Below, piece after piece: positions 1-58,214 of a stretch of 58,214 bases of DNA. Within the stretch, counting starts at the first letter, position 1. Each line of letters begins with the position of its first letter. The notes below the pieces were generated by a model. It was not told the DNA's origin and ran no database searches. It worked only from the letters and a program-made list of their open reading frames with translations. Both the position numbers and the translations under genes were made by a program. This DNA is from Burkholderiales bacterium (GTDB lineage: Bacteria > Pseudomonadota > Gammaproteobacteria > Burkholderiales > SG8-39), in the NCBI GenBank assembly GCA_038319115.1, contig JBBQCV010000001.1, forward strand, positions 1-58,214. The letters run 5' to 3'.

Positions 1-17
1 CAGGCCCTGCGCACGAA

Positions 18-56
18 CTTGCCCAACCCGCCTGCCTAACCCACCTGCCCAACCCC
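18..56 (+). repeat. Three tandem imperfect 13-nt repeats (cttgcccaacccg / cctgcctaaccca / cctgcccaacccc) just upstream of pssA
   Basis: Read directly from the sequence. Units match 11/13 pairwise. The array ends 10 nt before the ATG at 67. Confidence 0.8.
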
Positions 57-66
57 TCCACCGGAG

Positions 67-720
67 ATGGCCTTGAAGACGATCCTCGAAACCGCCCTCG
101 AGCAAGGCGCGCCGCGACACCTTTCGATGGTGCGCAGCTTCCACCTCGCCGACCTGTTCACGCTGGCCAACGCGGCGTGCGGGGTGGCCGGCGTGTTCCT
201 CGCCATGCTGTTCATCGACAGCGGCTGGATCCGCCATTTCCTCTGGGCCGCGGCGATGGCGCCGCTGGCGTTCTTCTTCGACGTGCTCGACGGGCGCATC
301 GCGCGCGCGCGCCACACCCACTCGGCCTTCGGACGCGAACTCGAGTCGCTCGCCGACGTGATCTCGTTCGGGGTGGCCCCTGCCGCCCTCGCCTTCGCCG
401 CGGGCATGCGTGGCGGGTGGGATGCGTTCGCGCTGATCTACTTTGTCTGCTGCGGCGTGAGCCGCCTCGCGCGCTTCAACGTCACGGCCGAGAGCCTCGC
501 CACCGATAGCGGCAAGGTCGCCTATTTCGAAGGCACCCCCATTCCCTCCAGCGTGGTGCTCACCGCGCTGCTCACTTTCGCTGTGTGGCGCGGCCGCATC
601 GGCGAGGCCCTGTATGGCGGCGTGTGGTCGCTGGGCTGGGACCTGCACCCCTTGAGCCTGCTGTTCGTGCTCTCGGGCACGCTGATGATCAGCAAGACGC
701 TGCGGATCCCGAAATTCTAG
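67..720 (+). CDS. pssA: CDP-diacylglycerol--serine O-phosphatidyltransferase (CDP-alcohol phosphatidyltransferase family)
   Basis: 217 aa, multi-pass hydrophobic. CDP-alcohol transferase motif DGRIARARHTHSAFGRELESLADVISFG. GGAG lies 4 nt upstream of the ATG. Confidence 0.85.
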   Translation: MALKTILETALEQGAPRHLSMVRSFHLADLFTLANAACGVAGVFLAMLFIDSGWIRHFLWAAAMAPLAFFFDVLDGRIARARHTHSAFGRELESLADVISFGVAPAALAFAAGMRGGWDAFALIYFVCCGVSRLARFNVTAESLATDSGKVAYFEGTPIPSSVVLTALLTFAVWRGRIGEALYGGVWSLGWDLHPLSLLFVLSGTLMISKTLRIPKF

Positions 721-754
721 GAAACCGACGCGAGGCCACGCTATCCTCCGTGGC

Positions 755-1423
755 ATGCAAACCCCCGCCGCACCGCCGCGCTACGACGCGATCCTGTTCG
801 ACCTGCTCACGGCCCTGATCGACTCATGGGCGTTGTGGAACCGCGTGGCCGGCAGCGAGGAAGCAGGACGCAGGTGGCGCGCCGAGTACCTGCGCCTCAC
901 CTACGGCTGCGGAACCTATCTGCCCTACGAAAGCCTGGTGGCCGAAGCGGCCCGCGCGAGCGGCCTGTCGAACGAGCATGCCGCGCGCCTCTGCCTCGAA
1001 TGGGAAACGCTGCAGCCCTGGGACGACGCGGTCGCGCTGCTTGGCGCGCTCGCGCCGCACTACCGCCTCGGGGTGGTGACCAACTGCTCCGAAGTCCTCG
1101 GCCGCCGCGCGGCGGCGCTCATGCAGGTGCCGTTCGAGTGCATCGTGACCGCCGAGCGCGCCGGCTTCTACAAACCCGATCCCGCGCCCTACCTTCTGGC
1201 GCTGCGCGACCTCGGCCTGCCCGCCGAGCGCGTTTTGTTCGTCGCCGGCTCGGGCTTCGACCTGATCGGCACCGCCCGCATCGGCATGACCACGCTGTGG
1301 CACAACCGTGTCGGCCTCGCTTCGCCGCAGGGCGCCCCCGCCGCCGCGGCCGAGGCGGCGACGCTACGCCCGATGGTCGAGGATTTCCTGCAGCGCTCCA
1401 GCCAACCTGAAGTCATTCCATGA
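755..1423 (+). CDS. HAD-superfamily hydrolase (haloacid dehalogenase-like)
   Basis: 222 aa. N-terminal ILFDLLTALIDSW (nucleophile Asp region), VVTNCS, FYKPDPAPY and FVAGSGFDLIGT motifs typical of the HAD fold. Stop overlaps the next start (ATGA at 1420..1423). Confidence 0.75.
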   Translation: MQTPAAPPRYDAILFDLLTALIDSWALWNRVAGSEEAGRRWRAEYLRLTYGCGTYLPYESLVAEAARASGLSNEHAARLCLEWETLQPWDDAVALLGALAPHYRLGVVTNCSEVLGRRAAALMQVPFECIVTAERAGFYKPDPAPYLLALRDLGLPAERVLFVAGSGFDLIGTARIGMTTLWHNRVGLASPQGAPAAAAEAATLRPMVEDFLQRSSQPEVIP

Positions 1424-2562: not shown

Positions 2563-2655
2563 CAGTGGCCTCGCGCACCTGAAACAACGCACGGACCGGC
2601 CCAGCGCGGCTGGTAAGATCGGCGCATCCCCACGCATCGCCACAAAGGAAGCGCC

Positions 2656-3009: not shown

Positions 3010-3036
3010 GACGCGCGGGCGCGCGCCGCGGCCTTT

Positions 3037-3711: not shown

Positions 3712-5499
3712 ATGCCGCCCCTCCTGCCTGCCCCCGCCCCAGCGCCTGTGCCCGCTCCCGTCTCCGCCCCGACGACGGCCGCGGATGCGTCGCAGCGGGG
3801 TCCACGGCGTCCTTCCAGGGATGCGCGCCGCGCCCGCATCGCATCGGGTGTGGTGCTGTTCATCTTCGTCGCCACGCACCTGGTCAACCACGCGCTCGGA
3901 CTGGTCTCGCTCGCGGCGATGGAGGCCGGCCGCTGGGCGTTCCTCGCCGTGTGGCGCAATTCCGTGGGCACGGCGCTCATTGCCGGCGCGATCGTGGTCC
4001 ACATCGCGCTGGCCGTCTGGTCGATCTACCTGCGCCGCCAGTTCCGCATGCCGTTCTGGGAGGGATTCCAGATCCTGCTGGGCGTGGCGATCCCGCTGCT
4101 GCTCGTCGACCACGTCATCGGGACGCGTCTTTCCCACGAAGAATTCGGCTTCGAAGATTCGTACACCGCGGTGGTGCTGGTGTTCTGGGTGCTCAAGCCC
4201 GAACTGGCGCTGTGGCAGAGCATCCTGGTGCTGGTGGCCTGGGCGCATGGCTGCATGGGCATCCACTACTGGCTGCGCATGGAGCCCTGGTATGCGCGCA
4301 TCCGCATGGTGCTGTACACCATCGTGGTCCTGCTGCCCGTGCTTGGCCTGCTTGGGTTCGCGCAGGCTGGCCGCTTCGTCGCCAGCCTCGCGGCCGACCC
4401 GATCTGGGCGCGCGAGCTGCTGGCCGATGCGCGCGCGCCCGACGTCATGGCCTCTGCCGCGCTCAAGCACACCGGCGACTCCATCGAATTGGTGTTCGCC
4501 TTCCTGCTCGCCATCACGCTGGTGGCGCGCGCGGTGCGCGAGGTCATCGAGCGCGGAAGCTCGGTGCGCATCACCTATCCCGGCCGGCGGGTGGTTACTG
4601 TCCCGGTGGGCTTCTCGATCCTCGAGGCCAGCCGCCAGGAGCGCATCCCGCATGCTTCGGTGTGCGGCGGGCGCGGGCGCTGCTCGACTTGCCGGGTACG
4701 CGTCTTGTCGGGCGCGGGCCCGTTGCCACCGCCGCGCCCGACCGAGGCGCGCGTGCTCGCGCGCCTGAATGCCCCGCCCGACGTGCGCCTCGCCTGCCAG
4801 CTGCGGCCGGTCCACGACCTGAGTCTCATGCTCCTTATTCCGCCCAGCATGAAGCCGATGGAGTCCCTCGAGCACCCCGGCATCATGGCCGGGCGCGAAA
4901 GGGAGGTCTGCGTCATGTTCGCCGACCTGCGCGGGTTCACCAAGATCGCCGAAAAGCGCCTGCCCTACGACGTCGTCTTCCTGCTCAACCGCTACTTCGA
5001 GGCGGTGGGGGACGCGATCGAGGCGGCCGGCGGCATCCCGAACCAGTTCATCGGCGACGGCATCATGGCGCTGTTCGGAGTCGAAAGCGGCGCGGCGGCG
5101 GGTGCGCGCGACGCGCTGGCGGCCGCGCGCGCCATGCACCGTGCAATCACCGACCTGAGCGCAGAACTGCACGAAGCGCTGCCCGAGCCGCTGCGCCTGG
5201 GCATCGGCGTGCACGTGGGGCCGGCGGTCGTCGGGCACATGGGCCGCGGCGTCGCCACCTACCTCACCGCGGTCGGCGACACGGTCAACACCGCCAGCCG
5301 CCTGCAGGACCACACCAAGGAATTCGCCTGCGAACTGATCGTGTCCGACCGCGTTGCCGAGCGCGCTGGGATCGACCTGTCGGGGTTTCCGCGCGAAGAA
5401 ATCACGGTGCGCAACCGCGCCGAGCCAGTGACGGTGAGGATCGTCAAGGACGTAGAGTCCCTGCCGCTTCCGCAAGCAAGGGCTGCGGAGCGCGCGTAG
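3712..5499 (+). CDS. Membrane-anchored 2Fe-2S ferredoxin-domain / class III adenylate-guanylate cyclase
   Basis: 595 aa. About 6 hydrophobic helices with intramembrane His residues (ATHLVNH, VVHIAL, VDHVIG, AWAHGCMGIHYW). Cys cluster CGGRGRCSTC...LAC. Cyclase motifs VMFADLRGFT, FIGDGIMALFG, GDTVNTASRL. Confidence 0.85.
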   Translation: MPPLLPAPAPAPVPAPVSAPTTAADASQRGPRRPSRDARRARIASGVVLFIFVATHLVNHALGLVSLAAMEAGRWAFLAVWRNSVGTALIAGAIVVHIALAVWSIYLRRQFRMPFWEGFQILLGVAIPLLLVDHVIGTRLSHEEFGFEDSYTAVVLVFWVLKPELALWQSILVLVAWAHGCMGIHYWLRMEPWYARIRMVLYTIVVLLPVLGLLGFAQAGRFVASLAADPIWARELLADARAPDVMASAALKHTGDSIELVFAFLLAITLVARAVREVIERGSSVRITYPGRRVVTVPVGFSILEASRQERIPHASVCGGRGRCSTCRVRVLSGAGPLPPPRPTEARVLARLNAPPDVRLACQLRPVHDLSLMLLIPPSMKPMESLEHPGIMAGREREVCVMFADLRGFTKIAEKRLPYDVVFLLNRYFEAVGDAIEAAGGIPNQFIGDGIMALFGVESGAAAGARDALAAARAMHRAITDLSAELHEALPEPLRLGIGVHVGPAVVGHMGRGVATYLTAVGDTVNTASRLQDHTKEFACELIVSDRVAERAGIDLSGFPREEITVRNRAEPVTVRIVKDVESLPLPQARAAERA

Positions 5500-5572: not shown

Positions 5573-6643
5573 TCAGCCCTCGACGGCGGCCTGCCAGCCT
5601 TCCTTCATCTGGCGGTCGAAATCCTCCGCCACGCGGGCGTCCTTCTCGAGCATCGCGTCGGCGTCGGTGGTCGCGTATTTCATCACCCCAAGGTCGGTGA
5701 ACGCCTTCTGCACGCGCGGGCTCCACAGGCCGATGTCGCGCACCGTGGGGACGATGCGCGAGAACAGGCGCATGCGGTAGCGGATGTTGGCCTCGGAGGC
5801 CTCGATCACCGGCAGGATGTCGTCGGGCTCGTAGCCGAGCTTTTCCCACATCTCTCGCGCGCGCATGCGGTCGCTCAGGTAGATCGAGCCCTCGATGATG
5901 AAATCCTCGCGCTCGCGCCGCTCGGCCTCGGTGAGTTGCGGGTAATAGTCCTTGAGCGCCATGCGCCCGAAGGCGACGTGCCGTGCCTCGTCCTGCATCA
6001 CGTAGGCGTTCACCTGGCGGCACAGCAGGTTCTTCGAATAGTCACGAATGCTCTGGAAAGCCACCAGCGCAAGGCCTTCGATAAGCACCTGCATGCCGAG
6101 ATAGGTGAAATCCCAGCGCTTGTCCGACAACGTCTTTTCGAGCAACGCCTTCAACGGCGGCGATATCGGGTACACCATGCGGTACTTGTCGGTCAGCAGC
6201 TTCCTGAACGCCTCCACATGGCGCGCCTCGTCCATGACCTGGGTGGCGGCATAAAACTTGGATTCGATGTCGGGCACGTCCTGCACGATGCGCGCGGTAC
6301 ACACCAGCGCCCCCTGCTCGCCGTGCAGGAACTGCGACAGCGTGTGCACCTGGTTGTGGTAGCGCAGTTCGGTCTTCTGCCGCGCCGACAGCTTGTCCCA
6401 CAGCGGCGTGCCGTAGAGCGGCAGCACCGTTTCGTCCATCTGCATCGGGTCTTCCGGGTCGACCGGCAGGCTCCAGTCGATGCGCGTGGCCGCGTCCCAT
6501 TGCTGGCGCTTGCCCTTGGCGTACAGGTTGAGCAGCTCGGAGCTGCGCGCGTCGTAGTCCCAGGTAAAGGAGGCCTCGACCTCGCCGTTGACTTTCCAAT
6601 GGGTCTCCTCGACCGGGAGCGCGTAGCGATAGAGCGTGGACAT
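5573..6643 (-). CDS. Ferritin-like diiron (ExxH x2) protein, putative diiron oxygenase
   Basis: 356 aa. Two ExxH motifs (MDEARHVEAF and MQDEARHVAFG) with additional carboxylates (HGEQG, LIEGLA), as in diiron carboxylate enzymes. Confidence 0.7.
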   Translation of the reverse strand: MSTLYRYALPVEETHWKVNGEVEASFTWDYDARSSELLNLYAKGKRQQWDAATRIDWSLPVDPEDPMQMDETVLPLYGTPLWDKLSARQKTELRYHNQVHTLSQFLHGEQGALVCTARIVQDVPDIESKFYAATQVMDEARHVEAFRKLLTDKYRMVYPISPPLKALLEKTLSDKRWDFTYLGMQVLIEGLALVAFQSIRDYSKNLLCRQVNAYVMQDEARHVAFGRMALKDYYPQLTEAERREREDFIIEGSIYLSDRMRAREMWEKLGYEPDDILPVIEASEANIRYRMRLFSRIVPTVRDIGLWSPRVQKAFTDLGVMKYATTDADAMLEKDARVAEDFDRQMKEGWQAAVEG

Positions 6644-6688: not shown

Positions 6689-6738
6689 GGGGGCGTCGAG
6701 CTGCCGCCGCAGGGGGGGGGCGTCGAGCCGCCGCAAGG
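6689..6738. repeat. Direct repeat (core cgtcgagc[t]gccgccgca[a]gg, 27-nt period) flanking a G9 homopolymer in a divergent intergenic region
   Basis: Repeat cores at 6694..6713 and 6721..6738. G9 run at 6712..6720. Lies between the diiron gene start (6643) and the PPK2 start (6843). Confidence 0.75.
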
Positions 6739-6842
6739 CGGCGTCAGGCGATGTCAGGATCGGCGGGAACGGCGCGCGCAAGTTCATGGCGTGCGCCCGC
6801 GCCACGGTATCCTCTGCATTTGTCCCCAAAGGCACAGTCGCA

Positions 6843-7709
6843 ATGAAAATCAACACGGGTGAGTTCCGCGTCCGGCCGGGCGAGAAGGTCAAGCTGGCGG
6901 CACGCCCGACACGGGTCAAGGACTGGTACCAGTCCAAATCCGGTTACCGCGACCTGCTTGCCGAGCACATCGCCGAGCTGCAGGACCTGCAGGACCGGCT
7001 GTACGCCTCCAACGGCTACTCGGTCCTGTTCATCCTGCAGGCGATGGACGCGGCCGGCAAGGACGGCGTCATCAAGCACGTGATGTCAGGCCTCAACCCG
7101 CAGGGCTGCCAGGTGTTCAGCTTCAAGCACCCCAGCGCCGAGGAGCTCGACCACGACTTCCTGTGGCGTGCGGTGCGCGCCCTCCCTGAACGCGGCCGCA
7201 TCGGCATCTTCAACCGTTCTTACTACGAGGAAGTCCTCATCGTGCGCGTGCACCCCGCGATACTGCGCGCGCAGAACCTGCCCGACCTGCCCGCCGATGA
7301 AACCGAAACCTGGCAGGGGCGGTTTCGCTCGATCAACGATTTCGAGGCCCACCTGCACCGCAGCGGCACGCGCGTGGTGAAGTTCTTCCTGCACATTTCG
7401 AAAGACGAGCAGAAGAAGCGCTTCCTCGCGCGCATCGACGACCCGGCCAAGAACTGGAAATTCGTGCGCTCCGACCTCGAGGAGCGCGCCTGCTGGGACG
7501 ACTACCAGCGCGCCTACGAGGCCTGCCTCTCGGCGACCAGCACCAGCCTGTCGCCCTGGTACGTGGTGCCCGCCGACGACAAGAAGAACGCGCGCCTGGC
7601 CGTGTCGCGCATCGTGCTCGACACGCTTGCCGGGCTGGGCCTGGCCTACCCCGTTCTCGACGCCAAAGCGACGCGCGAGCTGGCCGGGATGCGCAAGCTG
7701 CTCAAATAA
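6843..7709 (+). CDS. ppk2: Polyphosphate kinase 2 family (polyphosphate:nucleotide phosphotransferase)
   Basis: ORF 6786..7709 trimmed to MKINTGEF at 6843. Walker A-like [31 protein letters not shown], and lid-like [17 protein letters not shown] typical of single-domain PPK2. Confidence 0.85.
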
Positions 7710-8475: not shown

Positions 8476-9401
8476 GGCGTGCCTTCTTTCAGTCCAAGCA
8501 GTCGGAGCGGATTGGCGACGAGGATCCTGTGCAGCACGGCCTCGTCGGGGGCGAATTCAAACAACGCGTCCAGCAAGCGGCCATCATCGGGCATGCGCAC
8601 CGGATCGAACACGCCGGTGTGTGGCCAGTCGCTGCCCCACAACATCCTGTCGGGCGCGATTTCGATCAGGCGCTGCGCGAACGGAACCACGTCGGCGTAC
8701 GGCGGGCCTGACCGGGTAAGGCGGTCGGCACCACTCAGCTTGACCCAGACGTTGTCCTGCCGCGCCAGTTCGGCCAGCACGCCAAAGGAGTCCTGCGCGA
8801 GGCCGAGCGTGGGATCGATGCGACCCATGTGGTCGATCACAATCGGGACGCGGATGCCCGCGAGCCACGCCTTGAGGCCGGGTAGCGCGGCGCCCTCGAA
8901 GTGCAGCTCGACGAACCACCCCAGGCCGTCAATGCAATCGAGCACGTGATCGAAGACCGCAGGATCAAGCGCGCCGCCATGTTGCGGGTTGAAAGCGAAG
9001 CGCACCCCGCGCGCACCTTGCGCGTGGAGCTTTTCGCATCCTTCGCGGGAGGCCGTGCCGTCCAGGCGCACGACCGCGAGATAGCGCCCCTCCGAGTGCG
9101 CCGCCGCGTCGAGGTCGACCGCGTTGTCGAATCCGTGGGTGTTGGCATGCACCACCAACCCACGCTCGATGCCGAGCGCCCGGTGCATGCGCAGGCACGC
9201 ATCGAGCGGCGCATCCGGTGGCGTGTACTTGCGCTTGGGCGAATAGGCAAAGCGCGCCTGCGGGCCGAGCACATGGAAGTGGGTGTCCCATGCGCCGGCG
9301 GGCAGCGCGCGGCGCGGACGCAAAGGCGCGGGGAGCGGGCCGAGGCAAGCGCGGATCACGGGATCCGGGTTGACGCGCCCGGAACGCTCAGGGATCGACA
9401 A
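8463..9401 (-). CDS. Amidohydrolase-2 family protein (LigI / 2-pyrone-4,6-dicarboxylate hydrolase-like)
   Basis: 312 aa. WDTHFHVLGP (HxH), IVIDHMG, WGSDWPH motifs. Start overlaps the dioxygenase stop by 14 nt. Confidence 0.8.
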   Translation of the reverse strand: MSIPERSGRVNPDPVIRACLGPLPAPLRPRRALPAGAWDTHFHVLGPQARFAYSPKRKYTPPDAPLDACLRMHRALGIERGLVVHANTHGFDNAVDLDAAAHSEGRYLAVVRLDGTASREGCEKLHAQGARGVRFAFNPQHGGALDPAVFDHVLDCIDGLGWFVELHFEGAALPGLKAWLAGIRVPIVIDHMGRIDPTLGLAQDSFGVLAELARQDNVWVKLSGADRLTRSGPPYADVVPFAQRLIEIAPDRMLWGSDWPHTGVFDPVRMPDDGRLLDALFEFAPDEAVLHRILVANPLRLLGLKEGTPWTA

Positions 9402-10095
9402 AGAACGGCGTCTCGCCGTTGCCGCGCAACACGATGTCGAAGCCGAACGCCAACGTGCCGTCGGCGCCGGGCGGAAGCTCGCGCGCGATCAGAGAGGCGC
9501 GCGCTTCGAGGTCATCGATGCCGTTGAGAATCGGGTCGATGTCGTTCAGCTTTTCGTGCGGGAAATAAAGCTGCGTGATGAGCCGCTGCATGACACCCGC
9601 GCCGAAGATGGAAAAATGGATGTGCGGCGGGCGGTACCAGTCGTCATACCCGGGGTTGGGGTAATCGCCCGGCTTGATGGTCGTGAAGCGATAGCGCCCT
9701 TCGCTGTCGGTGAGCATCCGGCCATAGCCTTTGAAGTTCGGGTCGACCGGCTCGGGCGTCTGGTCGACCGGGTGCTCGTACTTGCCCCACTTGTTGGCCT
9801 GCCATACCTCCACCAGCGCACCGCGCACCGGCTTGCCCGATTCATCGAAGACCTGCCCGCTTACCACGATGGGCACACCCTGCGCCCGCGCGCCACCTGG
9901 CACCTTGCAGGCAAGGTCGTCCTCGCCCGGGTCGATGAGTGCCTGCGGGTAGAACGGCCCGACCGTCTGCGAGGGCGTGACCACCCGCACCGGCCCGGCC
10001 GGCGTGCGCGACTCGTGCACGCGATAGCCCTTGATGAGCTCGAGGCGCCGCTTGTCGACGAAAACAGAGGGATGTGGAATTGGTTTATCAGTCAT
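9388..10095 (-). CDS. Intradiol ring-cleavage dioxygenase, protocatechuate 3,4-dioxygenase beta-subunit-like
   Basis: Trimmed from ORF 9388..11130 to MTDKPIPH (CAT at 10093..10095), 235 aa. TVGPFYP, GRYRFTTIKPGDYP and YRPPHIHFSIF (His ligands) are typical of intradiol dioxygenases. Confidence 0.8.
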   Translation of the reverse strand: MTDKPIPHPSVFVDKRRLELIKGYRVHESRTPAGPVRVVTPSQTVGPFYPQALIDPGEDDLACKVPGGARAQGVPIVVSGQVFDESGKPVRGALVEVWQANKWGKYEHPVDQTPEPVDPNFKGYGRMLTDSEGRYRFTTIKPGDYPNPGYDDWYRPPHIHFSIFGAGVMQRLITQLYFPHEKLNDIDPILNGIDDLEARASLIARELPPGADGTLAFGFDIVLRGNGETPFFVDP

Positions 10096-10178
10096 AGATA
10101 AGTAGTAAAAGCTCAGCCAAAAAAGGGAGAGATGGGAGGGGGTAACGGGGGAACCGCAGGTGCCCCTGTTCCGAGCGC

Positions 10179-11156
10179 TTAGTTTACTTTGGCACCCGTC
10201 TGCCGGATCACCTTGCCCCAGCGCGGGATCTCGGTGCGGATCCATTCGGCGAACTGCTCGGGCGAGCCGGCCACCATCTCGAACTCGACCGCGAGCAGCT
10301 TGTCGCGCACTTCGGGCAGGTGGAGGATGCGCACGATCTCGCGGTTGTAGCGCTCGATGATCGGCCGTGGCGTGCCGCCGGTGGTGAGGAAGCCGATCCA
10401 CGCCACCGCCTCGAAGTCGGGAAAGCCCGACTCGATCATGGTCGGCACCGAAGGCGTCGAGGCGAAGCGCTTGCGCCCGGTCGATGCGAGAAGTCGGATC
10501 TGACCCGACTTTACGTATTGCAGCACGTTGCCCGGCACGAAGAACGCCGTCTGCACGTTGCCGCCGAGGAGGTCGGTCACCGCCGGCGCCGAGCCCTTGT
10601 AGGGCACATGCACGATATTGACGCCGGCGGCGGTCTTCAGCATCTCCATGGTCAGGTGCGAAGCGCTGCCCACGGCGATCGACGCGTAGCTGAGCTTGCC
10701 CGGCTGGGCCTTGGCCAGCGCCACCAGCTCGCCCACCGTGTGCGCGGGCACGCTCGGGTGGACGGTGAGGAACTGCGGCGCGGTCACGGCCAGCGTGATC
10801 GGCGCCAGGTCTTTGACCGGGTCGTACGGCATCTTCGCGAACAACGAGACGTTGACCGCGATCGGCCCGTTGTAGCCGATCAGCAGCATGTGGCCGTCCG
10901 GCGCCGCCTTGGCCACCATGTCCGCGCCGATGTTGCCACCCGCGCCACCCTTGTTCTCCACCACGATCGGCTGGCCGAGCGCCTCCTGCAATTTGGGCGC
11001 GACCAGGCGCGCGACGAGGTCGTTGGTGCCGCCGAGCACCGGCACGATGATGCGCACCGGCTTGGTCGGCGACCACTCCTGCGACTGCGCGTGCATCGGC
11101 AGCAGCACCGCAGCCGCGCCCAAGGCACAAATGACTCTACGCATCGAATTCCTCAT
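10179..11156 (-). CDS. Bug-family (TctC-like) tripartite tricarboxylate transporter substrate-binding protein
   Basis: 325 aa. Signal peptide, then PTKPVRIIVPVLGGTNDL, VENKGGAGGNIG, PYKGSAPAVTDLLGG. ATGA overlap with the upstream Rieske gene stop. Confidence 0.9.
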   Translation of the reverse strand: MRNSMRRVICALGAAAVLLPMHAQSQEWSPTKPVRIIVPVLGGTNDLVARLVAPKLQEALGQPIVVENKGGAGGNIGADMVAKAAPDGHMLLIGYNGPIAVNVSLFAKMPYDPVKDLAPITLAVTAPQFLTVHPSVPAHTVGELVALAKAQPGKLSYASIAVGSASHLTMEMLKTAAGVNIVHVPYKGSAPAVTDLLGGNVQTAFFVPGNVLQYVKSGQIRLLASTGRKRFASTPSVPTMIESGFPDFEAVAWIGFLTTGGTPRPIIERYNREIVRILHLPEVRDKLLAVEFEMVAGSPEQFAEWIRTEIPRWGKVIRQTGAKVN

Positions 11157-15181: not shown

Positions 15182-16723
15182 TCAGGCCATGCCGATCGGC
15201 TCGCCGAGTGTTTCCGCGACCTTCCCGGGGCGCTCGCGCATGAGGTCGTGCAGGCGCTTTTGCACGCTCGCATAAGCCGGGTCGCCGAAGCGGTTGACCG
15301 TCTCGGCCGGGTCGTTCACGAGGTCGTACAGTTCCCCCGCACCGCTGCCCAACTCGAAGGTTGCCTTGTGCGTTTTGGTGCGCACCGTGCGCAGTTGCAG
15401 CGCCACGCCGCAGCGCGAGGGGTGAACGTGCCACTCGCTCCACGCCGCGTTGCGGGTTTCCTCGCCTCCGCCCAGCAGTGTCGCAAGCGACCGGCCCTGC
15501 TGCGGCAGCGCCGGCTCCACGCCGGCCATTTCGCAGAAAGTGGCGGCGAGGTCGAGCGTGGACACCGGCTCGTCGACCACGCGACCGCTCGCCACGCCGG
15601 GGCCCGCGGCGAGCATGTTGACCCGAAGCAGATCCTCGAGCGGCCAGGGCCCCTTGAGGTAGAGCCCGTGGTTGCCGAGCATCTCGCCATGGTCGGTGGT
15701 GAACACCACGAGCGTGTCTTCCTCCAGCCCCAGGTCGGCGAGCCTGGACAGGATCCGCCCGACGTTGTGGTCGATGAGCGAAATCATGCCGTAGTAGTTC
15801 GCCGTCATCTGCGCGAGCTGCGCGTCGGTCTGGCGCGGCATGCGCGAGACCTTGGCGCGCAGGTGACGGAATTCCGCGTCGGCCAGCTGCGGCGTGCCCT
15901 CGAGCGTGGCCTTGTACCACCACGGGCGCAGGAAGGGATCTTCGCCGCGCGTGGCCGGCAGGGGCACGTCCTTCGGGTCGTGCAGCAGGCTCCACGGCAC
16001 CGGGCAGTCGAAAGGCTGGTGCGGATCGGGAAACGAGACCCACGCGCAAAACGGCTTGGACGCATCGCGCTGCTCGAGCCAGCTCACGGTGCGGTCGCCA
16101 AGCCAGGCGCTCGAATGCCAGGCGCACGGCAACGCCGAATGCCAGGTCTGCGCCGCGCCGCCGGTGTCCGGGCCGGTGGCTGCAGTGCACAGCGCGATCA
16201 TCGATTCCTCGTCCCCGCGCGACAGGAGCCAGCGCTCATAGTGGCCCACAGGCGGGCGCTCGAGCGGCATCGGGTTGTTGATGTGCCCCAGCACGATGAG
16301 TTCCACGTGCTCGAAGCCCATGTACGGCCCGCGCCAGGCGTCGCCGAACTTTGCGCCGCTGCGCATGCACTCGGGCGTGCCGGTGGGCTGGAAGGTCGCC
16401 TTGGTGGCGAAGTGCGCCTTGCCCAGGTACAGCGTGTCGTAGCCCGACTGCGCGAGCGTGCCGGCGAAGCCTTTCTCACCGACGCGCGGGTCGAGGTCCA
16501 CGCCGTTGTCCCACACCCCGTGCGTAAGCGGCAACTGGCCGGTGAGGATCGAGGCACGCGAAGGCTGGCACACGAGGTTGGGCGTGATGCAGGCCGAGAA
16601 ACGCGTGCCCGACTGCGCCAGGCGGTCGAGGTGCGGCGTTCGCACGGCCGGGTTCTGGATACCGAAGCAGTCGGCGCGATGCTGGTCGGAGGTGATGAGG
16701 AGGATATTGGGTCGTTTCGTCAT
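15182..16723 (-). CDS. Cys-type sulfatase (arylsulfatase family)
   Basis: Trimmed from ORF 15182..17377 to MTKRPNILLITSDQHRAD (CAT at 16721..16723), 513 aa. Formylglycine target motif CQPSRASILTG. TTDHGEMLG. Confidence 0.85.
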   Translation of the reverse strand: MTKRPNILLITSDQHRADCFGIQNPAVRTPHLDRLAQSGTRFSACITPNLVCQPSRASILTGQLPLTHGVWDNGVDLDPRVGEKGFAGTLAQSGYDTLYLGKAHFATKATFQPTGTPECMRSGAKFGDAWRGPYMGFEHVELIVLGHINNPMPLERPPVGHYERWLLSRGDEESMIALCTAATGPDTGGAAQTWHSALPCAWHSSAWLGDRTVSWLEQRDASKPFCAWVSFPDPHQPFDCPVPWSLLHDPKDVPLPATRGEDPFLRPWWYKATLEGTPQLADAEFRHLRAKVSRMPRQTDAQLAQMTANYYGMISLIDHNVGRILSRLADLGLEEDTLVVFTTDHGEMLGNHGLYLKGPWPLEDLLRVNMLAAGPGVASGRVVDEPVSTLDLAATFCEMAGVEPALPQQGRSLATLLGGGEETRNAAWSEWHVHPSRCGVALQLRTVRTKTHKATFELGSGAGELYDLVNDPAETVNRFGDPAYASVQKRLHDLMRERPGKVAETLGEPIGMA

Positions 16724-16735
16724 ATGATAGGCGGC

Positions 16736-17716
16736 ATGTATAGCCGCTTCCGCAAGTTGGTCCGCCCCGCCCTGCTCGCCGCAATGCTTGCGCCGTGCGT
16801 GGCGGTTGCGCAGAACTATCCCACGAAACCCATCCATTTGATCGCGCCGTTCGCACCCGGCGGGGTCATGGACCTCACCGCGCGCTCGGTGGCCGCACCG
16901 CTGCAGGAGAGCGTGGGGCAGTCGGTGATCATCGAGAACCGCGCCGGCGGCGGCGGTAACATCGGCACCGACCTCGTCGCGCGCGCCACCCCGGACGGCT
17001 ACACGCTGCTCATGCTCGGCGACAACAACACCATCGCCCCGGCGCTCTACTCCAAGCTCAACCACGACGTGCTGAAGGATTTCGTGCCGATCACCGCGCT
17101 GGTGACCGGCTCGCACATCCTCGTCGCGCATCCGTCGCTGCCGATCAACAGCGTGAAGGAACTCATCGCGGCGGCGAAAAAGGACCCGGGGCAGCTCAGC
17201 TACGCATCGCCCGGCAACGGCACCGCCCAGCACCTGGGCGTCGAACTGCTCAAGCTCATGGCCGGCAACCTGCAGATCACCCACATCCCGTACAAGGGCG
17301 GCGGCCAGGCGATCGGCGACGTGGTGGGCGGACAGGTGAAGCTCGCCATCCTCGGCCTCGCACCGGCGCTGCCGCACCTCAAGTCGGGCAAGCTCAAGGC
17401 CCTCGCGGTCACCGGCCGGCAGCGCGTCGCGCTGTTACCGAATGTACCCACAGTGGCCGAATCGGGCCTCCCGGGATTCGAAACCCTGCAGTGGTATGGC
17501 GTGGCAGCCCCTGCCGGCACGCCACCGGCCGTCATTGCGAAGCTGTACACCGAACTCACCAAGGCCATCCGCCAGCCCGCGGTGAGCGAGCGCTTGGCTG
17601 CGGCCGGTATGGAGATTGCCCCGAGTGCGAGTCCTGCGGAGTTTGCGAAGTTCGTGCGCGAAGACCTCGCGCGGTGGCCCGCCATCGTCAAGGCTGCGGG
17701 CGCCAAGGTCGACTAG
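16736..17716 (+). CDS. Bug-family (TctC-like) substrate-binding protein
   Basis: Trimmed from ORF 15248..17716 to MYSRFRKLV (alternative ATG at 16724). Signal peptide, YPTKPIHLIAPFAPGGVMD, ENRAGGGGNIG, PYKGGGQAIGDVVGG. Confidence 0.9.
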   Translation: MYSRFRKLVRPALLAAMLAPCVAVAQNYPTKPIHLIAPFAPGGVMDLTARSVAAPLQESVGQSVIIENRAGGGGNIGTDLVARATPDGYTLLMLGDNNTIAPALYSKLNHDVLKDFVPITALVTGSHILVAHPSLPINSVKELIAAAKKDPGQLSYASPGNGTAQHLGVELLKLMAGNLQITHIPYKGGGQAIGDVVGGQVKLAILGLAPALPHLKSGKLKALAVTGRQRVALLPNVPTVAESGLPGFETLQWYGVAAPAGTPPAVIAKLYTELTKAIRQPAVSERLAAAGMEIAPSASPAEFAKFVREDLARWPAIVKAAGAKVD

Positions 17717-20910: not shown

Positions 20911-22575
20911 CTAACTTTTGCGTCCATACAAGTCACGCGCAGCTTGCGCACTCACGAACCCGGCGCGCAAGTCCGATTCCACCGCCGCGGGGTCACGCTC
21001 CGAGGGCGCACCATAGCCGCCCCCGCCGGGCATTTCGAGCACCAGCACCTCACCGGCCGGAATCGTCTGCCGCCCTTTGGAACGCAGTTTAGCGCCCGAC
21101 TTGAGCGCGATGCCGCCCAGCGCGCCATCGCCGCCGCCTTCGCAACCGCGCGGCGCAAACTGGGTGCGGTCGAAGGTGGCGAAGATCGCGAACGGCTCGG
21201 CTTCGCGGCTGCCGATCTCCATGACCTGCCCCAGGCCGCCACGGAACCGGCCCGCGCCGCCGGAGTCCTGCCGGTATTCCTTGCGCCACACCACCAGCGG
21301 CGAAATTGCCTCGGTGATCTCGATCGGGACCATGCGCACGCCGCTGGGGAATGGCGTCGCCGACAGGCCATCCAGGCTGGGGCGCGCACCCACCCCGCCG
21401 CTGTGGAAACTGGTGACGTTGAATGTGCTGGCACCGGTGCCGCGCGAAGCCCCGGCTGCGATGCCCGGCCCTGCCCCGAGCTTGACCGACCACAGCGAGG
21501 CCGCACCTTCGGCCGGCACTTTCCCCGGCACGAGCTGGTGCAGGCAGCCGAACACTACGTCGGGCAGCATGTGGCCGATGATCGCGCGCGCCATCACCGG
21601 GCTGGGCGGCTTCGCATTGACGATGCATCCCTCGGGCGCCTCGATGCGGATCGTCGCGAGCGACCCGGCATTGTTCGGGATCGACGGGCCCACGATGCAC
21701 TTCACCCCGAACGCGGTATAGGCGTCGGTGTAGTTCTTGGGGCAATTGATGCCGTATTCGGAAATCCCCGAGGTACCGGCGAAGTCGACCACGACTCCGG
21801 CGGCCGAAAGGTCCAGCCGCGCGCGCAGCGTGATCGGCTCGTCGTACCCGTCCATCGTCATTGCGTACGAGGCCGACCCCTTCGGCAGGGCGGCGAGCGA
21901 AGCGAGCATCGCGTCGCGGCTGCGGGTCACGATGTAGTCGGCCAGCCCCGTGAGGTCGTCCATGGCGTGCTCGTCCATCATTTCGAGCAGCCGCTTGGCG
22001 CCGATTCCGTTGCATGCGGCCAGCGCGTACATGTCACCCTCGACCTGCACCGGCTCGCGCACGTTCTGGCGCAGGATGGCGAAAAAAGTATCGTTCGCCT
22101 CGCCGCGCGAGAACATCCTGCAGATCGGGACCCACAGGCCTTCGTGGTACACCTGCCGGCCGTCGGGTGACTGGCCCAGGCCGCCGATGTCGACCACGTG
22201 GGTGGTGCACGCGAAGATCGCCACCGCGTGCCCATTGCGGAATGCCGGCGTCACGACGGTGAAATCCGACAGGTGGCCGGTGCCCTTCCACGGGTCGTTG
22301 GTCACGAACACGTCGCCCTCGCGCATCGTGTCGAGGGGGAACGCGGCGAGGAAGTGCGGCACCGCCGCCGCCATGGTGTTGACGTGCCCGGGCGTGCCGG
22401 TGACCGCCTGCGCGATCATGCGACCCTGCACGTCGAACACGCCGGCCGAAATGTCGCCGGCCTCGCGCGCAGGCGTGCTGAACGCGGTGCGAACCAGCGT
22501 CTGCGCCTGCTCCTCGACCACCGCGAGGAGCCGGTTCCACATCACCTGCAGCCTGATTTCGGATGGGTTATTCAT
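20911..22575 (-). CDS. Hydantoinase B/oxoprolinase family protein (HyuB-like)
   Basis: 554 aa. MWNRLLAVVEEQAQTLVRTAFS, REAGDISAGVFD, NDPWKGTGHLSD, GGGYG near the C-terminus. Confidence 0.9.
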   Translation of the reverse strand: MNNPSEIRLQVMWNRLLAVVEEQAQTLVRTAFSTPAREAGDISAGVFDVQGRMIAQAVTGTPGHVNTMAAAVPHFLAAFPLDTMREGDVFVTNDPWKGTGHLSDFTVVTPAFRNGHAVAIFACTTHVVDIGGLGQSPDGRQVYHEGLWVPICRMFSRGEANDTFFAILRQNVREPVQVEGDMYALAACNGIGAKRLLEMMDEHAMDDLTGLADYIVTRSRDAMLASLAALPKGSASYAMTMDGYDEPITLRARLDLSAAGVVVDFAGTSGISEYGINCPKNYTDAYTAFGVKCIVGPSIPNNAGSLATIRIEAPEGCIVNAKPPSPVMARAIIGHMLPDVVFGCLHQLVPGKVPAEGAASLWSVKLGAGPGIAAGASRGTGASTFNVTSFHSGGVGARPSLDGLSATPFPSGVRMVPIEITEAISPLVVWRKEYRQDSGGAGRFRGGLGQVMEIGSREAEPFAIFATFDRTQFAPRGCEGGGDGALGGIALKSGAKLRSKGRQTIPAGEVLVLEMPGGGGYGAPSERDPAAVESDLRAGFVSAQAARDLYGRKS

Positions 22576-22578
22576 GGC

Positions 22579-24657: not shown

Positions 24658-25658
24658 CAGCCCACCTTCAGCAGGATCTTGCCCGCGGCCCCGCCCGCTT
24701 CCATGTGCGCGTGCGCGTCGCCCGCGCGCTCCAGGGCGAACACCTTGTCGATGATGGGGCGGATTCGGCCGCTTTCGAGCAGCGGCCACACCACGCGGCG
24801 CAGGATGGCGGCGATGCGGGTCTTGTCCTCGACGCTGCGGTGGCGCAGGGTCGAGCCGGTTACGACGAGGCGCTTGAGCATGATCTCGCGGATGTTGAAC
24901 GTGGCCTCTGCCCCGGCGTCGCCCGCGATGTAGGCAAGGCGCCCGAAAGGCGCCATGGCCCTGGCATTGCGCCCGGCATACGGGCCGCCCACCATGTCGA
25001 GCACCGCGTCCACGCCGCGGCCTTGCGTGTGACGCAGTATCGCGTCGACGAAATCATCTTCGCGGTAGTTGATCGCGAGTTCGGCGCCCAGCGTCCTGCA
25101 CAGTTCGCAACGCGCCTCGCTACCTGCGGTGACAATTGCACGCGAGCCCAGCGCGACCGCCATCTGGATCGCCATCGTGCCGATCCCGCTGGCCCCGCCA
25201 TGGATGAGTGCGATGTCGCCCGCGCGCAAGGCGCCATGCTCGAACAGGGCGGTCCAGACCGTGAACGCCGCCTCGGGAAGGCCCGCGGCGTCAACGAGGT
25301 CGATGCCGGCGGGCACCGGCAGGCACTGGCCTGCGGGCGCAATACAGTATTCGGCGTACCCGCCGCCGGCCACGAGGGCGCAGACGCGATCGCCCACCGC
25401 CCATTGCGTCGTTCCTTGCCCGATGGCCTCGATCACCCCGGAGATTTCGAGGCCTAGTGTCGCCGGTGCGCCGGGCGGCATCGGGTAGTCGCCCGCGCGC
25501 TGCTTGCAGTCGGCGCGGTTGATTCCCGCGGCATGGACCCGGATGCGCACCTCCCCATGACCGGGAAACGGCACCGGAACGCGCACGACCTCGAGCGCCT
25601 CCGGCCCGCCGGGCGAAGGCACCTGCACCGATGCGGCGATGACAGGCGCGCCCGCCAC
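24657..25658 (-). CDS. NAD(P)H:quinone oxidoreductase (zinc-type ADH superfamily, PIG3/Qor-like)
   Basis: GPEALEVV, GLEISGVIEAIG, ALIHGGASGIGTMAIQMA. Start uncertain: no plausible ATG, GTG candidates at 25658 or 25628. The upstream ORF extension would collide with the divergent Bug gene. Confidence 0.8.
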   Translation of the reverse strand: MAGAPVIAASVQVPSPGGPEALEVVRVPVPFPGHGEVRIRVHAAGINRADCKQRAGDYPMPPGAPATLGLEISGVIEAIGQGTTQWAVGDRVCALVAGGGYAEYCIAPAGQCLPVPAGIDLVDAAGLPEAAFTVWTALFEHGALRAGDIALIHGGASGIGTMAIQMAVALGSRAIVTAGSEARCELCRTLGAELAINYREDDFVDAILRHTQGRGVDAVLDMVGGPYAGRNARAMAPFGRLAYIAGDAGAEATFNIREIMLKRLVVTGSTLRHRSVEDKTRIAAILRRVVWPLLESGRIRPIIDKVFALERAGDAHAHMEAGGAAGKILLKVG

Positions 25659-25725
25659 AACGATCGCGTCGTTGCCCGCGCCGGGGTCGTGGGTTAGATT
25701 CGGATACTCTTTTTGGGGAAACACC

Positions 25726-28991: not shown

Positions 28992-29223
28992 GGGCCGGGG
29001 GCGGCGGCGCCGGCCCATGCGTTTATCCGTGATCTGGTATTGCAACTCGCTTGGAACCAGCCTCCCGGGCTGATCTAGCTAAATGTAAGTCCGACAATCA
29101 CCGTGCCGGCACGGTGATTGTCGGACTTACATTTAGCTAGATCAGCCCGGGAGGCTGGTTCCAAGCGAGTTGCAATACCAGATCACGGATAAACGCATGG
29201 GCCGGCGCCGCCGCCCCCGGCCC

Positions 29224-41479: not shown

Positions 41480-41491
41480 GCCGCCTATCAT

Positions 41492-47062: not shown

Positions 47063-48036
47063 GGAATTCGATGCGTAGAGTCATTTGTGCCTTGGGCGCG
47101 GCTGCGGTGCTGCTGCCGATGCACGCGCAGTCGCAGGAGTGGTCGCCGACCAAGCCGGTGCGCATCATCGTGCCGGTGCTCGGCGGCACCAACGACCTCG
47201 TCGCGCGCCTGGTCGCGCCCAAATTGCAGGAGGCGCTCGGCCAGCCGATCGTGGTGGAGAACAAGGGTGGCGCGGGTGGCAACATCGGCGCGGACATGGT
47301 GGCCAAGGCGGCGCCGGACGGCCACATGCTGCTGATCGGCTACAACGGGCCGATCGCGGTCAACGTCTCGTTGTTCGCGAAGATGCCGTACGACCCGGTC
47401 AAAGACCTGGCGCCGATCACGCTGGCCGTGACCGCGCCGCAGTTCCTCACCGTCCACCCGAGCGTGCCCGCGCACACGGTGGGCGAGCTGGTGGCGCTGG
47501 CCAAGGCCCAGCCGGGCAAGCTCAGCTACGCGTCGATCGCCGTGGGCAGCGCTTCGCACCTGACCATGGAGATGCTGAAGACCGCCGCCGGCGTCAATAT
47601 CGTGCATGTGCCCTACAAGGGCTCGGCGCCGGCGGTGACCGACCTCCTCGGCGGCAACGTGCAGACGGCGTTCTTCGTGCCGGGCAACGTGCTGCAATAC
47701 GTAAAGTCGGGTCAGATCCGACTTCTCGCATCGACCGGGCGCAAGCGCTTCGCCTCGACGCCTTCGGTGCCGACCATGATCGAGTCGGGCTTTCCCGACT
47801 TCGAGGCGGTGGCGTGGATCGGCTTCCTCACCACCGGCGGCACGCCACGGCCGATCATCGAGCGCTACAACCGCGAGATCGTGCGCATCCTCCACCTGCC
47901 CGAAGTGCGCGACAAGCTGCTCGCGGTCGAGTTCGAGATGGTGGCCGGCTCGCCCGAGCAGTTCGCCGAATGGATCCGCACCGAGATCCCGCGCTGGGGC
48001 AAGGTGATCCGGCAGACGGGTGCCAAAGTAAACTAA
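47059..48036 (+). CDS. Bug-family substrate-binding protein (mirror copy)
   Basis: Mirror copy of 10179..11156; palindrome caveat. Confidence 0.9.
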   Translation: MRNSMRRVICALGAAAVLLPMHAQSQEWSPTKPVRIIVPVLGGTNDLVARLVAPKLQEALGQPIVVENKGGAGGNIGADMVAKAAPDGHMLLIGYNGPIAVNVSLFAKMPYDPVKDLAPITLAVTAPQFLTVHPSVPAHTVGELVALAKAQPGKLSYASIAVGSASHLTMEMLKTAAGVNIVHVPYKGSAPAVTDLLGGNVQTAFFVPGNVLQYVKSGQIRLLASTGRKRFASTPSVPTMIESGFPDFEAVAWIGFLTTGGTPRPIIERYNREIVRILHLPEVRDKLLAVEFEMVAGSPEQFAEWIRTEIPRWGKVIRQTGAKVN

Positions 48037-48119
48037 GCGCTCGGAACAGGGGCACCTGCGGTTCCCCCGTTACCCCCTCCCATCTCTCCCTTTTTTGGCT
48101 GAGCTTTTACTACTTATCT

Positions 48120-48827
48120 ATGACTGATAAACCAATTCCACATCCCTCTGTTTTCGTCGACAAGCGGCGCCTCGAGCTCATCAAGGGCTATCGCGTGCAC
48201 GAGTCGCGCACGCCGGCCGGGCCGGTGCGGGTGGTCACGCCCTCGCAGACGGTCGGGCCGTTCTACCCGCAGGCACTCATCGACCCGGGCGAGGACGACC
48301 TTGCCTGCAAGGTGCCAGGTGGCGCGCGGGCGCAGGGTGTGCCCATCGTGGTAAGCGGGCAGGTCTTCGATGAATCGGGCAAGCCGGTGCGCGGTGCGCT
48401 GGTGGAGGTATGGCAGGCCAACAAGTGGGGCAAGTACGAGCACCCGGTCGACCAGACGCCCGAGCCGGTCGACCCGAACTTCAAAGGCTATGGCCGGATG
48501 CTCACCGACAGCGAAGGGCGCTATCGCTTCACGACCATCAAGCCGGGCGATTACCCCAACCCCGGGTATGACGACTGGTACCGCCCGCCGCACATCCATT
48601 TTTCCATCTTCGGCGCGGGTGTCATGCAGCGGCTCATCACGCAGCTTTATTTCCCGCACGAAAAGCTGAACGACATCGACCCGATTCTCAACGGCATCGA
48701 TGACCTCGAAGCGCGCGCCTCTCTGATCGCGCGCGAGCTTCCGCCCGGCGCCGACGGCACGTTGGCGTTCGGCTTCGACATCGTGTTGCGCGGCAACGGC
48801 GAGACGCCGTTCTTTGTCGATCCCTGA
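48120..48827 (+). CDS. PcaH-like intradiol dioxygenase (mirror copy)
   Basis: Mirror copy of 9388..10095; ATG at 48120; palindrome caveat. Confidence 0.8.
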   Translation: MTDKPIPHPSVFVDKRRLELIKGYRVHESRTPAGPVRVVTPSQTVGPFYPQALIDPGEDDLACKVPGGARAQGVPIVVSGQVFDESGKPVRGALVEVWQANKWGKYEHPVDQTPEPVDPNFKGYGRMLTDSEGRYRFTTIKPGDYPNPGYDDWYRPPHIHFSIFGAGVMQRLITQLYFPHEKLNDIDPILNGIDDLEARASLIARELPPGADGTLAFGFDIVLRGNGETPFFVDP

Positions 48828-51476: not shown

Positions 51477-51526
51477 CCTTGCGGCGGCTCGACGCCCCCC
51501 CCCTGCGGCGGCAGCTCGACGCCCCC
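51477..51526. repeat. Direct repeat plus C9 homopolymer (mirror copy of 6689..6738)
   Basis: C9 run at 51495..51503 read directly from the sequence; mirror of the G9 run. Confidence 0.75.
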
Positions 51527-55178: not shown

Positions 55179-55205
55179 AAAGGCCGCGGCGCGCGCCCGC
55201 GCGTC

Positions 55206-55559: not shown

Positions 55560-55652
55560 GGCGCTTCCTTTGTGGCGATGCGTGGGGATGCGCCGATCTT
55601 ACCAGCCGCGCTGGGCCGGTCCGTGCGTTGTTTCAGGTGCGCGAGGCCACTG

Positions 55653-56795: not shown

Positions 56796-57460
56796 GGAAT
56801 GACTTCAGGTTGGCTGGAGCGCTGCAGGAAATCCTCGACCATCGGGCGTAGCGTCGCCGCCTCGGCCGCGGCGGCGGGGGCGCCCTGCGGCGAAGCGAGG
56901 CCGACACGGTTGTGCCACAGCGTGGTCATGCCGATGCGGGCGGTGCCGATCAGGTCGAAGCCCGAGCCGGCGACGAACAAAACGCGCTCGGCGGGCAGGC
57001 CGAGGTCGCGCAGCGCCAGAAGGTAGGGCGCGGGATCGGGTTTGTAGAAGCCGGCGCGCTCGGCGGTCACGATGCACTCGAACGGCACCTGCATGAGCGC
57101 CGCCGCGCGGCGGCCGAGGACTTCGGAGCAGTTGGTCACCACCCCGAGGCGGTAGTGCGGCGCGAGCGCGCCAAGCAGCGCGACCGCGTCGTCCCAGGGC
57201 TGCAGCGTTTCCCATTCGAGGCAGAGGCGCGCGGCATGCTCGTTCGACAGGCCGCTCGCGCGGGCCGCTTCGGCCACCAGGCTTTCGTAGGGCAGATAGG
57301 TTCCGCAGCCGTAGGTGAGGCGCAGGTACTCGGCGCGCCACCTGCGTCCTGCTTCCTCGCTGCCGGCCACGCGGTTCCACAACGCCCATGAGTCGATCAG
57401 GGCCGTGAGCAGGTCGAACAGGATCGCGTCGTAGCGCGGCGGTGCGGCGGGGGTTTGCAT
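56792..57460 (-). CDS. HAD-superfamily hydrolase (mirror copy)
   Basis: Mirror copy of 755..1423; palindrome caveat. Confidence 0.75.
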   Translation of the reverse strand: MQTPAAPPRYDAILFDLLTALIDSWALWNRVAGSEEAGRRWRAEYLRLTYGCGTYLPYESLVAEAARASGLSNEHAARLCLEWETLQPWDDAVALLGALAPHYRLGVVTNCSEVLGRRAAALMQVPFECIVTAERAGFYKPDPAPYLLALRDLGLPAERVLFVAGSGFDLIGTARIGMTTLWHNRVGLASPQGAPAAAAEAATLRPMVEDFLQRSSQPEVIP

Positions 57461-57494
57461 GCCACGGAGGATAGCGTGGCCTCGCGTCGGTTTC

Positions 57495-58148
57495 CTAGAA
57501 TTTCGGGATCCGCAGCGTCTTGCTGATCATCAGCGTGCCCGAGAGCACGAACAGCAGGCTCAAGGGGTGCAGGTCCCAGCCCAGCGACCACACGCCGCCA
57601 TACAGGGCCTCGCCGATGCGGCCGCGCCACACAGCGAAAGTGAGCAGCGCGGTGAGCACCACGCTGGAGGGAATGGGGGTGCCTTCGAAATAGGCGACCT
57701 TGCCGCTATCGGTGGCGAGGCTCTCGGCCGTGACGTTGAAGCGCGCGAGGCGGCTCACGCCGCAGCAGACAAAGTAGATCAGCGCGAACGCATCCCACCC
57801 GCCACGCATGCCCGCGGCGAAGGCGAGGGCGGCAGGGGCCACCCCGAACGAGATCACGTCGGCGAGCGACTCGAGTTCGCGTCCGAAGGCCGAGTGGGTG
57901 TGGCGCGCGCGCGCGATGCGCCCGTCGAGCACGTCGAAGAAGAACGCCAGCGGCGCCATCGCCGCGGCCCAGAGGAAATGGCGGATCCAGCCGCTGTCGA
58001 TGAACAGCATGGCGAGGAACACGCCGGCCACCCCGCACGCCGCGTTGGCCAGCGTGAACAGGTCGGCGAGGTGGAAGCTGCGCACCATCGAAAGGTGTCG
58101 CGGCGCGCCTTGCTCGAGGGCGGTTTCGAGGATCGTCTTCAAGGCCAT
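57495..58148 (-). CDS. pssA: Phosphatidylserine synthase (mirror copy)
   Basis: Mirror copy of 67..720; palindrome caveat. Confidence 0.85.
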   Translation of the reverse strand: MALKTILETALEQGAPRHLSMVRSFHLADLFTLANAACGVAGVFLAMLFIDSGWIRHFLWAAAMAPLAFFFDVLDGRIARARHTHSAFGRELESLADVISFGVAPAALAFAAGMRGGWDAFALIYFVCCGVSRLARFNVTAESLATDSGKVAYFEGTPIPSSVVLTALLTFAVWRGRIGEALYGGVWSLGWDLHPLSLLFVLSGTLMISKTLRIPKF

Positions 58149-58158
58149 CTCCGGTGGA

Positions 58159-58197
58159 GGGGTTGGGCAGGTGGGTTAGGCAGGCGGGTTGGGCAAG
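58159..58197 (-). repeat. Three tandem 13-nt repeats (mirror copy of 18..56)
   Basis: Reverse complement of 18..56, read directly from the sequence. Confidence 0.8.
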
Positions 58198-58214
58198 TTC
58201 GTGCGCAGGGCCTG

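Follow-up and report, generated by a model that had tools for sequence, protein, structure and literature searches.

Contigs that read as their own reverse complement have been described from several kinds of assembly. SPAdes 3.14 assemblies of M. bovis isolates contained 81 whole-contig palindromes (PMC9455707), and exact mirror contigs are known from single-cell assemblies (PMC12755884; bioRxiv 10.1101/2023.06.06.543983); the authors of both PMC9455707 and PMC12755884 discarded their palindromic contigs, having judged them assembly errors. For the doubled de Bruijn graph, it has been proved that a 'self-mirror edge' turns the maximal unitig into a palindrome, which comes out whole from SPAdes and MEGAHIT but is split by ABySS (Rahman and Medvedev 2022; PMC9528984). 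At the level of individual molecules, fold-back reads occur in both Oxford Nanopore Technologies and PacBio data, where they make up 1-4% or more of genomic DNA long reads (PMC12870357), and palindromic fold-back reads from multiple displacement amplification (MDA) are common after whole-genome amplification (PMC6218980). Here, we report a case of this kind in contig JBBQCV010000001.1 of the Burkholderiales bacterium assembly GCA_038319115.1, analysed over its full 58,214 nucleotides (nt; hereafter, the window). The window is a single perfect palindrome, and we consider it very probable that this palindrome is a technical artefact of the assembly-graph stage, in which one 29.1-kb chromosomal piece was written twice.

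Comparison of the whole window with its own reverse complement returned 0 mismatches over all 58,214 bases, with a base composition of A = T = 9325 and C = G = 19782. The axis of symmetry lies at 29107/29108, where the sequence reads CCGTGCC/GGCACGG without a spacer, and the mirror symmetry spans the window from end to end, giving an even total length. Protein records of a DsrE-like protein and of EttA identified the window as one entire deposited NCBI contig of 58,214 bp, and the symmetry therefore reaches both contig ends, leaving no unique flank on either side. Chance cannot account for 29,107 consecutive complementary bases; the longest other spacerless palindrome within one arm is 16 bp. 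The first-pass annotation, made from the sequence before these comparisons, had described an error-free 58.2-kb palindrome of two 29,107-bp arms, with the axis at ccgtgcc/ggcacgg and no central loop, and all of this was borne out, as were its spot checks (termini 1-64 as the reverse complement of 58151-58214; 10081-10190 matching 48025-48134; a G9 run at 6712-6720 matching a C9 run at 51495-51503). Its observation that the symmetry runs to both window ends can be refined to both ends of the entire contig. The main features of the palindrome are as follows:

1-29107, plus strand: the segment that we read as real content, 29.1 kb of chromosomal DNA with ~68% guanine plus cytosine (GC), 24 genes and 94% coding (composition, gene calls, Pfam/NCBIfam matches, synteny with contigs of related metagenome-assembled genomes (MAGs))
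29108-58214, minus strand: exact reverse-complement copy of 1-29107 (0 mismatches, whole contig, simulation)
29107-29108, no strand: fold-back junction (axis), spacerless, ...AATCACCGTGCC/GGCACGGTGATT...
20-55, plus strand (mirror 58160-58195): 13-nt tandem repeat TGCCCAACCCACC x2.8, 20 nt from the outer contig end and just upstream of the first gene

The right half, 29108-58214, is most likely a copy written by the assembler and no second locus. Inspection of the axis sequence revealed no adapter remnant. A terminator-like match found across the junction is mostly a consequence of the palindrome itself. A self-link could also have been seeded by a short palindrome naturally present at the axis, a less likely source, and the bases to the right of 29107 are not independent of the left arm.

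In its anatomy, the window closely follows the described cases. Like the contigs of PMC9455707 and PMC12755884, it is palindromic throughout, with its genes doubled as identical reverse-complement DNA; those contigs came from isolate or single-cell data processed with a known assembler, whereas the window is apparently metagenome-derived and was deposited unfiltered. The anatomy predicted for the palindromic unitigs of PMC9528984 is the same as that of the window (even length, spacerless, exact from end to end), but those palindromes are truly in the genome, whereas the palindromic (k+1)-mer of the window would be spurious, stemming from a chimeric read or a coverage gap. Fold-back reads (PMC12870357; PMC6218980) likewise consist of a forward strand followed by its own reverse complement and are the probable source of the junction k-mer. 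However, they are read-level objects, near-perfect and usually shorter than 58 kb, and alone they explain neither the 0 mismatches nor the mirrored contig ends of the window.

We propose that the chromosome carries the 29,107-bp arm once, and that during assembly the unitig representing it (U) gained a link at its right end to its own reverse complement, rc(U), that is, a self-mirror edge formed by a palindromic (k+1)-mer centred on 29107/29108. The link would most likely have come from one or a few fold-back chimeric reads, produced either by snap-back during library preparation or amplification, or as an unsplit or adapter-less long read; a less likely source would be a short palindrome native to the sequence, together with a coverage gap over the true continuation. 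With that continuation absent, weak or fragmented in the graph, the assembler would walk the unitig forwards, cross the self-link and return along the same unitig, emitting U + rc(U). Such output has identical arms by construction, an even length, a spacerless centre and mirror-image contig ends. At the outer end, the 13-nt tandem repeat at 20-55 may have caused the unitig to stop. We infer that the reads across the junction were chimeras, as we do the assembler and the type of read; the intactness of all genes points to high-accuracy reads. The absence of any difference between the arms extends to the G9/C9 homopolymer, and while one node traversed twice always agrees with itself, independently called arms rarely would, which argues against an independent calling of the arms. 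The first-pass annotation had listed unsplit nanopore reads, SMRTbell reads with a missed adapter and phi29 amplification as sources of such an artefact; the artefact itself stands, but the best-fitting cause is a graph assembly emitting U + rc(U), a behaviour on record for SPAdes and MEGAHIT with short reads (PMC9528984; PMC9455707), and not necessarily any of these three.

A toy simulation showed that single-copy input is sufficient. In a doubled de Bruijn graph built from error-free reads of the arm plus ONE fold-back read of 150 nt, the maximal unitig at k = 55 equalled the window base for base, and the window was likewise reproduced at every k of the MEGAHIT list (21-141) when contigs were carried forward, as multi-k assemblers do. 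When the true continuation was added, the unitig instead ended in a branch at 29,107, so the artefact also needs the true path to be missing or weak. It is plausible that a variable junction between the DsrE-like gene and the neighbouring gene expected beyond the axis, dinB, fragmented the true path in a mixed population. The window combines exact self-complementarity and even length, symmetry to the contig ends, an interrupted gene order and sufficiency from single-copy input, four properties expected of a contig formed at a self-mirror edge.

The interruption of gene order became apparent from nine related loci (L001/L005, L006, L007, L008, L009, L010, L070, L072 and L067, where L001 = L005). 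The closest homologs of the DsrE-like protein, from Betaproteobacteria MAGs, share 74-91% protein identity with it, ettA has 86-89% nucleotide identity to the six GTDB relatives compared, and GTDB representative genomes did not include the contig itself, only relatives that reach at most 83% protein identity to the window; an exact 25-nt query of native sequence left of the axis had 0 matches in JGI metagenomes. The protein, GTDB and JGI collections searched thus contained no other assembly of the species. The ettA gene serves as the synteny anchor. The 432-kb contig of L001 shares with the window the order hydantoinase B, hydantoinase A, alcohol dehydrogenase, TctC, EttA and DsrE-like; beyond the DsrE-like gene come dinB in convergent orientation (DNA polymerase IV; Pfam IMS), then genes for an amidohydrolase and a UvrA-like protein, and more of the chromosome. 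Eight of the nine loci have a convergent dinB beyond the DsrE-like gene, in contigs of up to 432 kb. The two genes are immediate neighbours in L001/L005, in L009 and in L070 (the closest, at 91%), and an insert of 1-6 kb separates them in L006, L007, L008, L010 and L072; in L008, a 3' fragment of dinB adjoins the DsrE-like gene and the full dinB lies 6 kb away. The ninth locus, L067, internal in an 824-kb contig, had no dinB detected within 10 kb of the DsrE-like gene. From these comparisons, the dsrE-dinB junction is a variable rearrangement hot spot among the relatives. Contigs of 114-824 kb have the orthologous locus in their interior (351-372 kb of 432 in L001; 339-359 kb of 824 in L067). 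In the window itself, tblastn with the DinB of a relative gave noise only (E >= 0.24).

The recurrence of dinB after the DsrE-like gene in these eight loci predicts it as the right-hand neighbour, and what truly follows position 29107 is probably a convergent dinB. The native sequence adjoining the axis can be followed in detail in alignments with the relatives:

26711-28372, minus strand: ettA (energy-dependent translational throttle ABC-F protein), a full-length housekeeping gene (NCBIfam NF008775 equivalog, 973 bits)
28551-28991, plus strand: DsrE-like gene of 146 amino acids with a signal-peptide-like N-terminus, the last gene before the axis (PF02635)
28992-29097, no strand: native intergenic region after the DsrE-like gene (alignments: window AAATGTAAGTCCGACAATCAC versus L001 AAATAAAAGTCTGACAATTAC)
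29098-29107, minus strand: TCA (reverse complement of a TGA stop) plus 7 nt, aligned with the dinB stop and last codons of the relatives (alignments)

The distal part of the intergenic region, ~29020-29097, aligned as homologous to the dsrE-dinB intergenic region of the relatives. Homology then reaches the aligned dinB stop, where the window has TCA at 29098-29100 and both L001 and L070 have TTA, and the fold-back begins 7 nt past this stop codon. The minus-strand open reading frame (ORF) ending at the 29098 stop has just 12 codons (LNVSPTITVPAR followed by the stop), 10 of which are mirrored intergenic DNA. Positions 29098-29107 would thus be the sole remnant of the expected dinB neighbour. 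Homology that runs up to the aligned dinB stop and turns back 7 nt later implies that the junction truncates a conserved neighbour, and on the evidence of these alignments the axis is the point where that neighbour was cut off and no natural end. The earlier proposal that the right arm is no separate locus and that the real content is 29.1 kb accords with this, given that the relatives run on into dinB, that the window is without it and that the fold-back falls ~7 nt past its stop. The same proposal had left the neighbour beyond the axis open; it is indeed missing from the contig, but synteny in eight of the nine loci now predicts a convergent dinB there.

Several points weigh against reading the palindrome as a graph artefact. 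A real fold-back, whether an inverted duplication or a hairpin end, would yield the same U + rc(U) contig, such that shape alone does not discriminate between them. The case for the artefact draws on gene order shared with relatives of only ~75-91% identity, on prior expectations of palindrome instability and on published precedent, and the identification of TCA at 29098-29100 as the dinB stop depends on just 10 nt of native sequence. The simulation was idealised, with error-free reads and no coverage filters, and at the default minimum k-mer count of 2 in MEGAHIT, no fewer than two reads would have to support the link.

Among the other explanations, the one that survives best, though we give it only a small chance, is that the contig was built from fold-back long reads (unsplit nanopore, adapter-less SMRTbell or MDA), with a separate consensus for each arm. 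The frequency of such reads noted above makes this conceivable, and several of the related MAGs come from long-read projects, as judged by their contig_NNNN names. Yet a separate consensus of two 29-kb arms should differ somewhere and have unequal ends, and the window has 0 differences and exact mirror ends, including an identical 9-nt homopolymer in both arms. The axis is free of adapter remnants, all 24 genes are intact, and a 58-kb contig exceeds any HiFi read.

The alternative that the fold-back was physically present in the sampled DNA, as an inverted duplication or as the end of a hairpin-ended linear replicon, we regard as improbable even when its two forms are taken jointly. Both had been raised by the first-pass annotation as deserving a test; synteny makes them unlikely. 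The first form, a very unlikely one in our estimation, supposes a very recent spacerless inverted duplication in some or all of the population, for example from a break close to the 3' end of dinB that acquired a hairpin cap and was then replicated. The arms of such a duplication would be collapsed by a graph assembler, which would emit the same U + rc(U) and stop where the differing outer flanks branch, so although the contig shows no unique flanks and its ends are mirror images, a branch-induced break in the graph could hide those flanks. The variability of the dsrE-dinB junction, with inserts in L006, L007, L010 and L072 and a dinB fragment plus a full copy in L008, also marks the site as one prone to rearrangement. 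Against a duplication, long perfect palindromes are not maintained in bacteria because SbcCD/Mre11-Rad50 cleaves hairpins. This nuclease action on hairpins is described in PMC12624138. Breaks are known to give rise to fold-back inverted duplications in yeast and cancer (PMC10622511), but the known cases are primed by short inverted repeats and retain an asymmetric spacer, whereas the centre of the window is perfectly symmetric. The arms show zero divergence over 29 kb, and a duplication would have doubled 24 genes and deleted or displaced dinB.

The second form, read-through of a covalently closed hairpin telomere or of the replicated telomere junction of a linear replicon (ResT/TelA/TelN-type), is the least probable of those considered. 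Its appeal is that a replicated telomere junction is inherently a spacerless perfect palindrome (PMC3558466), and that sequencing through a hairpin tip would give fold-back reads that drive the same assembly. The junctions of TelA, TelN, TelK and ResT (PMC3558466; PMC7861564) do share with the window a spacerless perfect palindrome with a self-complementary centre. However, they stand at replicon ends, at a specific resolvase site (each telomere resolvase having its own target site; PMC3558466) and with a resolvase gene, whereas the orthologous site of the window is internal and non-palindromic in the relatives, and the arm carries no gene of this kind. Comparison with the relatives placed the axis neither at a terminus nor, on indirect evidence, at a dedicated palindromic resolvase site: the locus is internal in every relative with a long contig, at the positions in L001 and L067 given above, and in the relatives the counterpart of the 30 nt next to the axis is a common dsrE-dinB intergenic region, without a palindrome, and a stop codon. 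A telomere here would truncate the expected dinB after its stop codon plus 7 nt. The 24 genes of the arm include housekeeping ettA and no resolvase, partition or replication genes, and neither phages nor linear plasmids showed similarity to the arm. Borrelia, Agrobacterium and some phages are known to have hairpin telomeres (PMC7861564); Burkholderiales are not. An origin from a plasmid, a phage or an N15-like element was rejected, a phage search having given zero matches and a plasmid search only scattered matches to conserved genes such as ettA and hydantoinase.

We return to the single chromosomal segment that the graph artefact would have doubled. GC content is ~68% throughout the arm, and GC at the third codon position singles out one coding frame per region. 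Gene calls with Pfam/NCBIfam matches gave 24 confident genes per arm, all intact and covering 94% of it, a count that replaces the 26 genes proposed earlier from the sequence. The last gene before the axis, at 28551-28991, does match Pfam PF02635, in keeping with its earlier description as dsrE-like, and residues 1-551 of EttA align to positions 2-554 of the 556-position NF008775 profile. The annotated products, all within the arm and assigned from Pfam/NCBIfam, are as follows:

CDP-alcohol phosphatidyltransferase, HAD hydrolase, D-serine-dehydratase-like enzyme, HutD
2Fe-2S/nucleotide-cyclase fusion, AurF-like oxygenase, PPK2, short-chain dehydrogenase
Amidohydrolase, intradiol dioxygenase, three TctC/Bug receptors, Rieske oxygenase
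Methyltransferase, EamA transporter, sulfatase, acyl-CoA ligase
Hydantoinase A, hydantoinase B, zinc alcohol dehydrogenase, EttA, DsrE-like protein

No integrase, transposase, replication, partition, phage or telomere-resolvase gene is among the 24, and scans of the window found no tRNA, tmRNA or Rfam family. Inside the arm there are no insertion sequence elements, long repeats or natural long palindromes. Judged from its sequence, the arm is ordinary chromosomal DNA of an uncultured Burkholderiales/Betaproteobacteria bacterium, its nearest relatives being uncultured MAGs of that group, to which the source bacterium therefore belongs.

Gene order upstream of ettA also varies among the relatives. 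The cluster of hydantoinase B/A and zinc alcohol dehydrogenase (window 20911-25781) is present in the window and in L001 and absent from L006, L008 and L010, which have acyl-CoA ligase and TctC genes close to ettA, amounting to an indel of ~6 kb between relatives. The contig of L010 (CAMAXP010000008.1) bears the title 'Bordetella parapertussis'; its DsrE-like protein, however, shares only 77% identity with that of the window, and its gene order resembles that of environmental Betaproteobacteria MAGs, such that the label looks doubtful.

Four of the individual genes and intergenic regions deserve comment. The 595-amino-acid protein encoded at 3712-5499 joins a 2Fe-2S ferredoxin domain (residues 293-366) to a class III adenylate/guanylate cyclase domain (395-551), preceded by ~290 N-terminal residues without annotation; a redox-sensing cyclase is one possible role. 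The G9 run at 6712-6720 lies in a 140-nt divergent intergenic region between the genes for the AurF-like oxygenase (5573-6643, minus strand) and PPK2 (6786-7709, plus strand), and homopolymer runs of this sort are potentially slippage-prone promoter elements. In the sulfatase ORF at 15182-17377 (731 amino acids), the Sulfatase domain begins only at residue 223, reflecting either an over-called start codon or a long unannotated N-terminal extension. The gene for the intradiol ring-cleavage dioxygenase (PF00775, 235 amino acids; 9388-10095, minus strand) lies inside a 580-amino-acid mechanical ORF that extends through a TctC gene region in a different frame, and is easily missed by longest-ORF calling.

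The practical significance of the palindrome is modest but real, as a flag for database hygiene. As deposited, the contig doubles 24 genes and inflates estimates of genome size and of duplication or contamination, and it creates false paralogs in pangenome and gene-family counts, as was reported for SPAdes palindromic contigs (PMC9455707). Comparing a contig with its own reverse complement is a trivial test, one that could flag such records database-wide. For the organism, the palindrome itself almost certainly represents no real biological feature and its biological significance is very low, beyond the fact that the contig hides the true neighbour of the DsrE-like gene, probably dinB. A biological fold-back is improbable because of the synteny evidence; were it nevertheless physically present, the case would be remarkable, implying either that a perfect palindrome of giant size is tolerated or that Betaproteobacteria have a hairpin-telomere system not yet described.

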